Counted from the stretch's first letter, positions 24,942 to 27,182 are shown. The stretch: 46,537 nucleotides of DNA from Candidatus Aenigmatarchaeota archaeon (GCA_046760225.1 JBHIDR010000003.1:1-46537); one strand, 5' to 3'. A program made the numbers and translations. Notes: a model not told the origin generated them from the letters alone.

Positions 24942-25002
24942 ATCTACAGCACCAATTTCTTGATATCCCGCGATGGCTTAGTCTGGTAGAGCGACCGGCT
25001 GT

Positions 25003-25653
25003 GCGGTGAGAAAGCATGACGACACTAAAACCTATAATAGAACAACAAGGTACAGTTTCAGAAGCAAAGGCTAGAATATTGGCGAACCTCAAGGCTGATG
25101 GAAGTACATGCAGAAGCGGTACGAACTATACAAAAAAATATGAGGTACGTGATGCCGAGCAACTTAATAGGTTTGCCAAAGACCTGAAACATGTATATGG
25201 GCTGAACATAAAGCGCATGCTTAACACATCAGGAATAACAGGAATGCCCATAGAAGCTGTATACCTTAGGTCCAAATTAGCATTTGAAGATTTGCAGAAA
25301 TTTGGACGCTTCAGGTCAGAAGACTGGAATGTACCTCAGCAGATAAAAAACTCTTCCAAGCAAGTTAAGGCCGCCTTTTTAATGGCCTTTTTTGATGACG
25401 AAGGATCTGTTATCAAATCGAGAAGGGAAATACGCCTTTACTCGATAAATATTGATGGCCTTAATGAAATAGCAAAGCTGCTTGAAGAGTTTGAAATAAA
25501 GTGCAGTATACGAAGTGGTTATGGAAAACGAAGAAATGTGTTTGCCATTATAATTCGTGGCGTAGAAAACCTTGAGAGGTTTTCAAAACATATAGGTTTT
25601 GGTGTTAAGACTAAAAAAAGAAAACTAAAAAGTATGCTTTCCACTGTGGCCAA
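25003..25653 (+). mobile_element. 651-nt relaxed-BHB tRNA intron at 35/36 encoding a LAGLIDADG endonuclease
   Basis: Central helix GGCT/GGCC, 3' bulge AA^A, long closing stem GCGGTG-A-GAAAGCATG / TATGCTTTC-CACTGT. Confidence 0.82.
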
Positions 25654-25684
25654 AGGCGAGCACGCTAAGTGCTTGTTGCGTTAG
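25016..25684 (+). CDS. Intron-encoded double-motif LAGLIDADG homing endonuclease
   Basis: ILANLKADG and FLMAFFDDEG motifs; SD GGTGAG; 214 aa if read from circular intron, 222 aa from precursor. Confidence 0.9.
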   Translation: MTTLKPIIEQQGTVSEAKARILANLKADGSTCRSGTNYTKKYEVRDAEQLNRFAKDLKHVYGLNIKRMLNTSGITGMPIEAVYLRSKLAFEDLQKFGRFRSEDWNVPQQIKNSSKQVKAAFLMAFFDDEGSVIKSRREIRLYSINIDGLNEIAKLLEEFEIKCSIRSGYGKRRNVFAIIIRGVENLERFSKHIGFGVKTKKRKLKSMLSTVAKGEHAKCLLR

Positions 25685-25697
25685 CACTCGCTCGGAA
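25656..25697 (+). other. 42-nt tRNA-Tyr intron at canonical 37/38
   Basis: Inner stem GCGAG/CTCGC, CTG/CGG central pairing, 3' bulge AA^A. Confidence 0.82.
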
Positions 25698-25748
25698 ACC
25701 GGTAGATCGGGAGTTCGAATCTCCCTCGCGGGACCATTTGTGATTTTT

Positions 25749-26363
25749 ATGTCCAGTATGCGAGAGCTCAGGAAGGTCTATATGCAGAACAGGAGGCAGA
25801 TAAGGAATTTTTTGGAATCAACCAAAAATAAGAATGATGGTTTCCTGCTGCAGGAGATGTTCTTCTGCATGCTCACTTCCCAGACAAAGGCAGCCAACTG
25901 CCGTGCTTCTGTTGACAGGCTGAAGGGATGCAGGGACCTCTTTGAAGCGAACATGGAAGAAATAAGGAACTCCCTTGCTGGTGTGAGGTTCGCTGACAGG
26001 AAGGCACAGTACCTTTTCAAGGCAAGGCAAAAGCTGCCCAGGATAAAGGAGAACCTTTCCCTTTCGCCATTCGAGCAAAGGGAATGGCTGGTCGATAATG
26101 TGAAGGGAATGGGCATGAAACTGGCTTCACACTATCTGAGGAACATAGGGGTGTTTGGCCTGGCTATACTTGACGTCCATGTGCAGAGGTTCATGCAGGA
26201 AAACTGGAAGTTCCGGGGAGAAGTGGGCAAGCTGAACAGGAAGCAGTACCTTGAGAACGAGAAGGAGTTCTTCAGGCTAGCGAAAAAGCTTAAAATGAGG
26301 CCGGAGGAGCTTGACATAGCAATATGGATGCTGGGCAACAGGAGCGGCAATTTCTACGGTTAA
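25749..26363 (+). CDS. ogg: N-glycosylase/DNA lyase (8-oxoguanine DNA glycosylase, Ogg2-type)
   Basis: EMFFCMLT, GVRF, REWLVDNVKGMGMKLASHYLRNIG, AILDVH; start 25740-25758 uncertain. Confidence 0.88.
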   Translation: MSSMRELRKVYMQNRRQIRNFLESTKNKNDGFLLQEMFFCMLTSQTKAANCRASVDRLKGCRDLFEANMEEIRNSLAGVRFADRKAQYLFKARQKLPRIKENLSLSPFEQREWLVDNVKGMGMKLASHYLRNIGVFGLAILDVHVQRFMQENWKFRGEVGKLNRKQYLENEKEFFRLAKKLKMRPEELDIAIWMLGNRSGNFYG

Positions 26364-26364
26364 C

Positions 26365-26372
26365 TTTAAATA
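26365..26372 (+). promoter_or_regulatory. TATA box for 5S rRNA
   Basis: TTTAAATA ending 23 nt before the 5S 5' end. Confidence 0.6.
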
Positions 26373-26394
26373 CCTTTGAGAAAGTAATAATCAT

Positions 26395-26554
26395 TGGTCG
26401 CGGTCAAAACGGAGTGGCAAGATCCGTTCCCGTTCCGAAACATCCTTCAGAGAAGCTGCACCTTACCTGGAGGGTGAGGAAACACGGTAATGAATCGCTC
26501 CAGTGATCTGGACTGTACTGTGGAAAACATGGGAAATCCAGGACGCTGCGACCA
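26395..26554 (+). rRNA. rrf: 5S rRNA with 43-nt intron; join(26395..26439,26483..26554), 117 nt
   Basis: Helix I TGGTCGCGG/CTGCGACCA, helix II GGAGTGG/TCGCTCC, loop C CCCGTTCCGAAC-ACGG restored after removal, loop E TGTACT...GGGAAA. Confidence 0.9.
26440..26482 (+). other. 43-nt BHB-type intron in 5S rRNA loop C
   Basis: CCGT TCCG AA^A CATCCTTCAG..CTGGAGGGTG AGGA AA^C ACGG: outer 4 bp, central 3 bp + G.A, 10-bp inner stem. Confidence 0.85.
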
Positions 26555-26587
26555 TAACTTTTTATTCTACCAAAATAATAGAATTTC

Positions 26588-26791
26588 ATGGCAAAGAGAA
26601 GAAAACAAAGGAAAGTAAGCAAAAGGCAAGTCATGAGGGAACTTGCCATTGGTCTCATTATTTTAGTATCTGTGATCATACTTGCCATAAGTGCTTTTTC
26701 TGATATAATCGATCTCGTGATTATAGTGGGACTTATTATTCTTGCAATCATCATAGCAACAATATTTGCAGGAAAGGGTTCACTTGATTAG
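26588..26791 (+). CDS. Small two-TM membrane protein
   Basis: Basic N-terminus then hydrophobic hairpin, 67 aa. Confidence 0.65.
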   Translation: MAKRRKQRKVSKRQVMRELAIGLIILVSVIILAISAFSDIIDLVIIVGLIILAIIIATIFAGKGSLD

Positions 26792-26830
26792 AAAAAGTAT
26801 TTAAACTGTTACTGCTCATTTCTTAAGTAT

Positions 26831-26938
26831 GCCCGGGTAGTATGTCTTGGTGTGGCATTTCACCCGAGAGCTAAAAGTGGTCTAGTATCTCGGCCTGTCG
26901 AGTCGAGGACCTGGGTTCAAATCCCAGCCCGGGCGCCA
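26831..26938 (+). tRNA. tRNA-Asp(GTC) with 32-nt D-arm intron (26844..26875, position 13/14)
   Basis: GCCCGGG/CCCGGGC acceptor, G73, CCA, loop CTGTCGA; intron TAGT AT^G TCTTGG..CCGAGA GCTA AA^A. Confidence 0.92.
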
Positions 26939-27008
26939 CACCAACCCCTTTATAAACCTTGATATTCTATGGGTTGTTAGGACATTTTGGAAGTTCGAAA
27001 AAAAATAG

Positions 27009-27182
27009 GTGATAAGAATAGCAGAGTTCAGAAGGGGCGGTTTCGACAGAAACAGAAGGCCTCGCGAAATGCATAAAGCTACTTGCGCTGAATGCGGCAA
27101 GGAATGCGAAGTTCCGTTCAAGCCTAAATCAGACAGGCCGGTTTATTGCAAAGAATGCTTTATGAAAAGGAGAAAGTTCTAA
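27009..27182 (+). CDS. CxxC-x17-CxxC zinc-ribbon protein
   Basis: PREMHKATCAECGKECEVPFKPKSDRPVYCKECF; below ORF-track length cut-off; start GTG 27009 or ATA 27018. Confidence 0.88.
   Translation: MIRIAEFRRGGFDRNRRPREMHKATCAECGKECEVPFKPKSDRPVYCKECFMKRRKF

Follow-up and report, generated by a model that had tools for sequence, protein, structure and literature searches.

Introns of the group I and BHB types have been described in archaeal ribosomal RNA genes, and the available text of the survey by Nawrocki et al. (2018; PMC6125680), in which the term "5S rRNA" occurs 0 times, places them in SSU and LSU genes only. Likewise, the available parts of two accounts of archaeal rRNA processing (PMC10515664, PMC12918454) describe BHB motifs for the 16S and 23S rRNAs, and not for the 5S rRNA. 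Oversized 5S genes in bacteria and archaea have been attributed to expansion segments (Stepanov and Fox, 2021; PMC7812874). In the portion of that paper available to us, excision is raised only as a possibility, loop-C expansions are placed at positions 34-37, positions 42-43 being blocked by uL5, and the expansions described mostly avoid the conserved motifs and are not complementary to the core; neither "metagenom-" nor "Candidatus" occurs in its main text. According to the available text of another study, no insert of at least 100 bp was present in 645 CPR-bacterial 5S genes (PMC11270868). Our literature search, which was based on main texts, yielded no published description of an intron in 5S rRNA, in agreement with the earlier note on this DNA, the author of which knew of no spliced 5S intron.

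The window analyzed here, i.e., the whole stretch of 46,537 nucleotides, belongs to a tiny hydrothermal-vent archaeon (Aenigmatarchaeota, DPANN; genome G000 below) and carries an interrupted 5S rRNA gene with a 160-nt precursor on the plus strand. We infer from the sequence that the 43 nt at 26440-26482 are a protein-spliced BHB mini-intron in a working 5S gene, a reading to which we give a probability of roughly 0.8. What was observed directly is the gene with its motif, the fact that this motif is conserved and covaries in relatives, an empty site and the genes of the splicing enzymes. The features of the locus and its surroundings are listed in Table 1.

Table 1. Features of the interrupted 5S rRNA gene and of its neighbors (positions counted from the first letter of the window).
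Feature	Position	Strand	Remarks
tRNA-Tyr(GUA)	24967-25736	+	693-nt intron in the anticodon loop
Ogg-type glycosylase gene	25740-26363		between tRNA-Tyr and 5S
A/T-rich box TTTAAATA	26367-26374	+	upstream of the 5S gene, some 25 nt from its start; probably an archaeal TATA box
5S rRNA gene (precursor, 160 nt)	26395-26554	+	RF00001 match
Exon 1	26395-26439	+	5' strands of helices I, II and III, and loop C to ...CCGAA
First CCGU, 5' strand of mature helix III	26424-26427	+	expected to pair with 26484-26487 after splicing; Rfam alignment
Outer helix, 5' strand (second CCGU)	26430-26433	+	pairs with 26484-26487
Central helix, exon strand UCCG	26434-26437	+	pairs with AGGA
5' bulge AAA	26438-26440	+	predicted cut 26439/26440
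Putative BHB mini-intron, 43 nt, no ORF	26440-26482	+	fold, boundary test, empty site in G001
Inner stem, 5' strand	26441-26450	+	10 bp with 26467-26476
Inner stem, 3' strand	26467-26476	+	
Central helix, intron strand AGGA	26477-26480	+	A26477 opposite G26437, a G.A mismatch
3' bulge AAC	26481-26483	+	predicted cut 26482/26483
Exon 2	26483-26554	+	last C of CCGAAC through the 3' end
ACGG	26484-26487	+	3' strand common to the BHB outer helix and mature helix III
T5 run	26559-26563	+	directly past the gene; probably an archaeal terminator
tRNA-Asp(GUC)	26831-26938	+	neighbor of 5S; 32-nt intron 26844-26875 after base 13 (D-arm)

The gene was not reported when the whole window was scanned with Rfam at the default gathering settings. 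In the relaxed-filter scan, RF00001 covered 26396-26554 over the full model (positions 1-120) with 48.9 bits (cut-off 38, E 4.8e-09), the alignment containing an unaligned insertion of 45 nt located in loop C; the score of the same gene in the strict-filter mode was 37.2 bits. The region of the upstream box is kept in all seven of the family members aligned, the columns T17, T18, A21, A23 and C24 being invariant. A self-splicing group I or group II identity was considered and rejected: no match to the Rfam models of these catalytic introns was obtained in 26300-27100 at E values up to 10, and the insert measures only 43 nt as against hundreds of nucleotides.

The architecture given in the earlier note, with 43 nt interrupting the CCGAAC of loop C, an outer CCGT/ACGG helix, a central TCC/GGA helix plus a G.A, bulges AAA and AAC and a 10-bp inner stem, was recovered in full, both in the sequence and in the minimum-energy fold. 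The central helix thus comprises three standard pairs and the G.A mismatch, the inner stem of 10 bp includes two G.U pairs and the outer helix has 4 bp. The two 3-nt bulges lie on opposite strands, and the central helix is located 5' of the bulge on both of them, so that the handedness agrees with that of BHB motifs in tRNA, judging by the canonical 37/38 intron. When 26426-26491 is folded, the minimum-energy structure is exactly this BHB (-21.4 kcal/mol, z -2.02, with 8 of the 200 shuffled sequences as stable), and that of the whole gene also contains it (z -3.17, 1 of 200 shuffles).

Removal of 26440-26482 in silico restores CCGAAC and gives a product of 116 nt when counted from 26396 and of 117 nt when counted from 26395, the latter being the length announced in the earlier note. 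The comparison of 5S models with and without the insert, which had also been proposed there, points the same way: in addition to the full-length RF00001 match obtained in the presence of the insert, the joined exons (116 nt) matched an nhmmer profile built from 30 relatives without the intron in one piece with 100.4 bits, versus two pieces of 31.1 and 54.5 bits in the case of the unspliced gene. Since genome-free scanning of long 5S genes for BHB motifs proved to be unspecific, the helices of the 5S itself outranking the true sites, we focused instead on the boundaries by which the conserved loop would be restored. There exist three such choices in this gene, only one of which carries a BHB (central helix 3/4, inner helix 10, outer helix 4). 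As a control for chance, arbitrary pairs of sites were taken in the same genes, and 1,355 of the 150,349 pairs (0.9%) reached at least 3/4 in the central helix together with at least three pairs in the inner helix. An alternative cut register via U26433-A26481 was rejected: the conserved loop is not restored by it.

That the BHB would compete with mature helix III for the ACGG at 26484-26487, as had been pointed out in the earlier note, was confirmed by the thermodynamic model, in which the competition is nearly even: at 37 C, ACGG pairs with the second CCGU, forming the BHB outer helix, with a probability of about 0.52, and with the first CCGU, forming helix III, with a probability of about 0.43. 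In the precursor ensemble, the pairing probabilities were 0.95-1.0 in the inner stem and 0.87-1.0 in the central and inner helices taken together, whichever partner ACGG takes. The ViennaRNA minimum-energy fold of the joined 5S differs from the canonical 5S fold; a non-canonical minimum-energy fold is common for 5S. Splicing would free ACGG for its mature partner. It is conceivable that the intron serves to keep ACGG off this partner, and that splicing determines in this way when helix III and loop C fold.

The survey of related 5S genes suggested in the earlier note provided the main comparative evidence. RF00001 was run on 203 genomes of the phylum, which include 61 relatives, the whole order (42) and 151 each at the class and phylum level, these two being the same group. 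Relaxed-filter rescans of the 26 genomes lacking a 5S match recovered two genes, in G024 and G043, both of them intron-bearing, and left 24 genomes without a 5S. Among the 179 genomes of the 203 in which a 5S was found, 18 (about one in ten) carry loop-C inserts, 19 in all, ranging from 20 to 83 nt and devoid of ORFs, although these counts come from related genomes, which are non-independent samples. Apart from the present genome, 17 genomes are involved, carrying 18 inserts, each with its own matching BHB. Loop-C inserts occur in 11 of the 34 families and in 8 of the 37 5S-bearing genomes of the order, and the insert-bearing gene is the only 5S gene found in each of the 18 genomes.

The inserts occupy three sites. 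Site A (CCCRU/UCCGAAC) harbors 12 of them (G003, G016, G017, G021, G024, G101, G102, G106, G116, G121, G171, and G189), site B (CCCAUUC/CGAAC) a single one (G012), and site C (CCGAA/C) six (G000, G005, G017, G043, G100, and G162). By our own count on the E. coli 5S sequence, sites A, B and C correspond to positions 40/41, 42/43, and 46/47 of that molecule. Sites B and C are at or beside the positions given as blocked by uL5 in the available part of PMC7812874.

At all three sites, removal of the insert at its BHB restores the conserved loop in every case (19 inserts), and in the 13 single-intron genes of the first set, exactly one of the 1-8 boundaries by which the loop would be restored carries a BHB. 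Of the 19 introns, 17 have a complete (4/4) central helix, while that of the other two (G000 and G100) reaches 3/4. At least three contiguous pairs are present in the inner helix of 18 introns, that of G005 consisting of one pair, a mismatch and eight pairs. Five of the 19 have an outer helix of 3 bp or more that abuts the motif, and 14 are of the relaxed HBh' form. When scored with nhmmer against the intron-less profile, the joined form surpassed the unspliced one in all 18 genes.

The strand contributed by the intron follows the exon 4-mer with which it is paired: UCCC pairs with GGGR at site A, CCAU with GUGG at site B and UYCG with CGRR at site C. Double compensatory changes are present in G171 (UCUC with GAGG) and G043 (UUCG with CGAA), and G162 (UUCG with CGGA) shows a G.U intermediate. 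The same-genus genome G001, in which the gene is nearly identical, has a precise empty site at the predicted ends, and so have three other members of the family (G002, G004, and G006). In one genus, the site-A intron measures 56, 67, or 83 nt, the BHB core remaining unchanged. The 5S gene of G017 (L038 197-385, minus strand) carries two introns, of 46 and 25 nt, with a 6-nt exon, UCCGAA, between them. In the second BHB, the central helix begins on its exon side with the base that also closes the 3' bulge of the first BHB, and this overlap suggests that the two introns may be removed in a definite order.

Hairpin extensions of 30-36 nt were also observed in the helix IV/V part of three 5S genes (G070, L048; G114, L049; G183, L082), in which loop C is intact; these are probably ordinary expansion segments and not BHB introns.

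In the light of these data, the closest competitor of the intron reading, according to which the 43 nt would stay in the mature 5S as an extra loop-C hairpin with a functionless likeness to a BHB, appears to be improbable. Retained 5S insertions do exist, and positions 34-37 of loop C are counted, in the available text of PMC7812874, with the sites that are least obstructed in the bacterial 5S and are said to tolerate retained expansions in some Clostridia; the same phylum also includes the ordinary-looking extensions mentioned above. However, the universal CCGAAC is interrupted by the present insert, the 3' end of which shows complementarity to the core (UCCG with AGGA), in contrast to what that part of PMC7812874 reports for expansions. 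A retained expansion also fits poorly with the existence of three sites, each showing a register-exact BHB with compensatory changes, with an invariant BHB core in inserts varying in length from 20 to 83 nt, with the pair of inserts surrounding a 6-nt exon in a single gene and with the absence of the insert within the same genus. The comparative pattern is predicted by a protein-spliced intron and not by a retained expansion.

Site-A and site-C introns belonging to different families (G101, L052, and G100, L054; also L053 and L056) begin with the same 13 bases, whereas the start shared across sites never exceeded 8 bases in 2,000 composition-preserving shuffles. This common start suggests either a shared origin or movement between the sites, which lie only 6 nt from each other and are both occupied in the two-intron gene of G017. 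It might be speculated, although we find it rather unlikely, that these first known 5S rRNA introns constitute a family of mobile mini-introns, devoid of ORFs and hopping over a few bases by reversal of the EndA/RtcB reaction and copying back into DNA, with no homing endonucleases involved. A degenerate pattern of the site-C junction gave six matches in the genome contigs, three of which are bacterial chance matches and three archaeal, and 11 matches in the metagenome contigs, two of them in 5S genes; every 5S gene detected in this way was identical to one already included in the survey, and no new intron was found in either set.

The 5S gene is surrounded by other intron-bearing RNA genes. 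The intron of the neighboring tRNA-Asp forms a BHB with a central UAGU/GCUA helix, bulges AU^G and AA^A, an inner UCUUGG/CCGAGA helix and no outer helix. Rfam gave only a partial tRNA match for this gene (31.1 bits), and ARAGORN, which detected no tRNA anywhere in the window, missed it. The intron of tRNA-Tyr contains an ORF (25016-25684) encoding a 222-aa LAGLIDADG_3 protein (PF14528, E 7e-13). Elsewhere in the genome, the 23S gene (contig C8, 16724-22032; L060) extends over 5,309 nt for a model of 2,987 positions, and the 16S pieces (contig C1, 42935-46861) cover about 3.9 kb. In comparison with that of the same-genus G001, this 23S gene has six extra inserts of about 734 (737), 1,015, 27, 28, 825, and ~70 nt. 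All five of the inserts examined have BHB-like ends, with a 4/4 central helix in the 737-, 28-, and 825-nt ones, and the 28-nt insert with such ends is a mini-intron. In G043, the segment 1898-1953 of L085, to which Rfam gave a weak YrlA-like match, shows the 3' portion of a tRNA, with T-arm and acceptor, and directly after it the 5' portion of a tRNA, with acceptor and D-arm; this might be a permuted tRNA or else a pair of tRNA genes lying end to end.

Two EndA genes are present on contig C2 (L044, 1297-1788 and 2332-2862), with a 189-aa ORF between them. The encoded proteins, of 163 and 176 aa, each contain both PF02778 and PF01974. The 176-aa protein, which is alpha-like, keeps the Tyr and His residues of the triad, and its best PDB match is 3iey_A (E 4.3e-35), which we take to be the Nanoarchaeum equitans enzyme; these two proteins have in common a loop insert of 7 residues, absent from the M. 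jannaschii enzyme. The 163-aa paralogue has no triad His. The pairing of a Tyr/His-bearing EndA with a His-less one suggests an (alpha-beta)2 enzyme, a type said to accept non-canonical BHBs in the available parts of PMC5829648 and PMC7714728. An alpha-like EndA was found in 24 of the 25 genomes searched, and the second paralogue is mostly adjacent. In both paralogues of the present genome, Ala replaces the canonical catalytic Lys, and the segment AHNIRANMLW is invariant in all 10 alpha-like proteins aligned from the order (L090-L103). Ala is thus found at the catalytic Lys position despite the many BHB introns present in the genomes carrying these EndA genes. As a speculation, another Lys, for example in the invariant PxKRGxK loop, may take over catalysis.

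An RtcB ligase gene is located on contig C35. The RtcB match there (1477-2834) is distributed over two frames, positions 3-52 of the model lying in a frame with two TAG codons and positions 47-426 in the other, which could reflect a frameshift, an error in the assembly or the presence of a small insert close to the 5' end.

Evidence based on the BHB bears on cleavage alone and not on ligation, and it might therefore be imagined that EndA excises the insert without any rejoining, the 5S rRNA working in the form of two pieces (about 45 and 72 nt) that helices I-III keep together. According to the Rfam alignment, both fragments would remain base-paired via helices I, II, and III, and the situation would be comparable to that of bacterial rRNAs fragmented after the removal of intervening sequences. 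With the RtcB gene present in the genome, with BHB excisions coupled to ligation or circularization wherever they are described in the available parts of PMC10515664 and PMC7714728, and with no fragmented archaeal 5S found in the literature search, we consider this arrangement to be very improbable.

The gene is the sole 5S match across the assembly (851,505 bases in 83 contigs, 83.18% complete). The interrupted 5S DNA is real: three additional runs from the same study provided contigs that span 26200-26760, in which the segment 26295-26760 is unchanged and an intron-less joint is absent. An intron-less form with at least 90% identity was not found in the contigs of the four DNA runs of this study. 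One run (X1, record 4) includes a 208-nt contig from another organism, which matches only the 5' exon (26401-26439, with two differences), has a different upstream sequence and ends 2 nt past the end of the exon, where it is uninformative on the intron. As the assembly is only 83% complete, a second, uninterrupted 5S gene may be present elsewhere. That the gene at hand is a silent or decaying copy, i.e., a pseudogene disrupted by the insert, with the working 5S lying in the unassembled 17% of a genome split into 83 contigs, is the least credible of the alternatives, since the joined exons score like the intact relatives (100.4 bits), the A/T box and T-run are retained, the helix changes with respect to the same-genus G001 are compensated, similar loop-C BHB inserts occupy the sole 5S found in each of 18 genomes and the contigs of the four runs yielded no intron-less form.

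Taken at the level of sequence comparison, the geometry of the motif, the 18 further inserts, the empty site and the presence of EndA and RtcB genes favor the BHB intron reading put forward in the earlier note. The points that weigh against this reading include the G.A mismatch in the central helix, the competition for the outer helix and the presence of Ala instead of Lys in EndA.

The mechanism that we propose is deduced from the sequence as regards transcription, cleavage, ligation and the helix switch. The 5S gene would be transcribed from its own promoter. In the precursor, the exon UCCG and the AGGA at the 3' end of the intron would pair as the central helix, which would be flanked by the 10-bp intron hairpin and the CCGU/ACGG helix and would present the two 3-nt bulges. 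The tRNA splicing endonuclease, made up of the two adjacent EndA paralogues, probably as an (alpha-beta)2 enzyme of Nanoarchaeum type, would cut after the second base of each bulge (26439/26440 and 26482/26483), and RtcB would join the exons. ACGG would then pair again with the CCGU at 26424-26427, giving helix III in its mature form together with the universal loop CCGAAC.

Among the ribosomal RNAs, it is only for the 5S that our literature search revealed no intron on record, and what is described here would be a known kind of intron in a new host gene. If it is indeed spliced, the substrates of the archaeal tRNA splicing machinery would extend to all three rRNAs of a single organism, and ORF-less mini-introns would be subject to rapid gain and loss, and probably to movement, within a universally conserved loop of 11 nt. 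The 160-nt 5S precursor would be a small and testable substrate for a DPANN endonuclease devoid of the canonical catalytic lysine. Two of the 18 intron-bearing 5S genes (those of G024 and G043) were missed with the strict Infernal filters and found only in the relaxed rescans. Since standard filters miss intron-bearing 5S genes, some of the "missing 5S" calls made in DPANN bins may be artefacts, which may matter for genome-quality standards, in which the presence of 5S is counted.

Comparisons with the known systems show in what respects these introns are unusual. The retained 5S expansions (the 108-nt one of Halococcus morrhuae and those of Thermoanaerobacterium and other Clostridia) also give an oversized 5S with a hairpin insert, located in some cases in loop C, and have been demonstrated, or are assumed, to be kept in the mature RNA according to the available text of PMC7812874; unlike them, the present insert splits CCGAAC, pairs with the core as a BHB and has three alternative sites. 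EndA and RtcB also act on rRNA precursors in which BHBs lie in the flanks and serve to release or circularize whole rRNAs, whereas the BHB described here is internal to the 5S; the available parts of the papers on these precursors state or imply that 5S maturation proceeds without such BHBs. With the BHB introns of the 16S and 23S genes of Thermoproteales and other Crenarchaeota, as presented in the available parts of PMC4496867 and PMC6125680, the 5S introns share a BHB at the exon-intron junctions, from which the former are protein-spliced, as we propose for the latter, a small number of sites, a patchy distribution in close relatives and, in some cases, a short and ORF-less form. They differ in that the host is the 5S gene, which is not mentioned as a host in the available text of either paper, that all 19 5S inserts are ORF-less mini-introns of 20-83 nt and that the lineage is DPANN and not TACK. 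There is a resemblance in form to the non-canonical tRNA introns with an HBh' or relaxed BHB, which are processed by (alpha-beta)2 or epsilon2 enzymes (available text of Kaneta et al., 2018, PMC5829648, and of PMC7714728): an abutting outer helix is lacking in 14 of the 19 5S introns, as it is in the neighboring tRNA-Asp intron. Here the substrate is an rRNA and the alpha-like EndA has Ala at the catalytic Lys position, whereas the motif and the presumed enzymes are the same.
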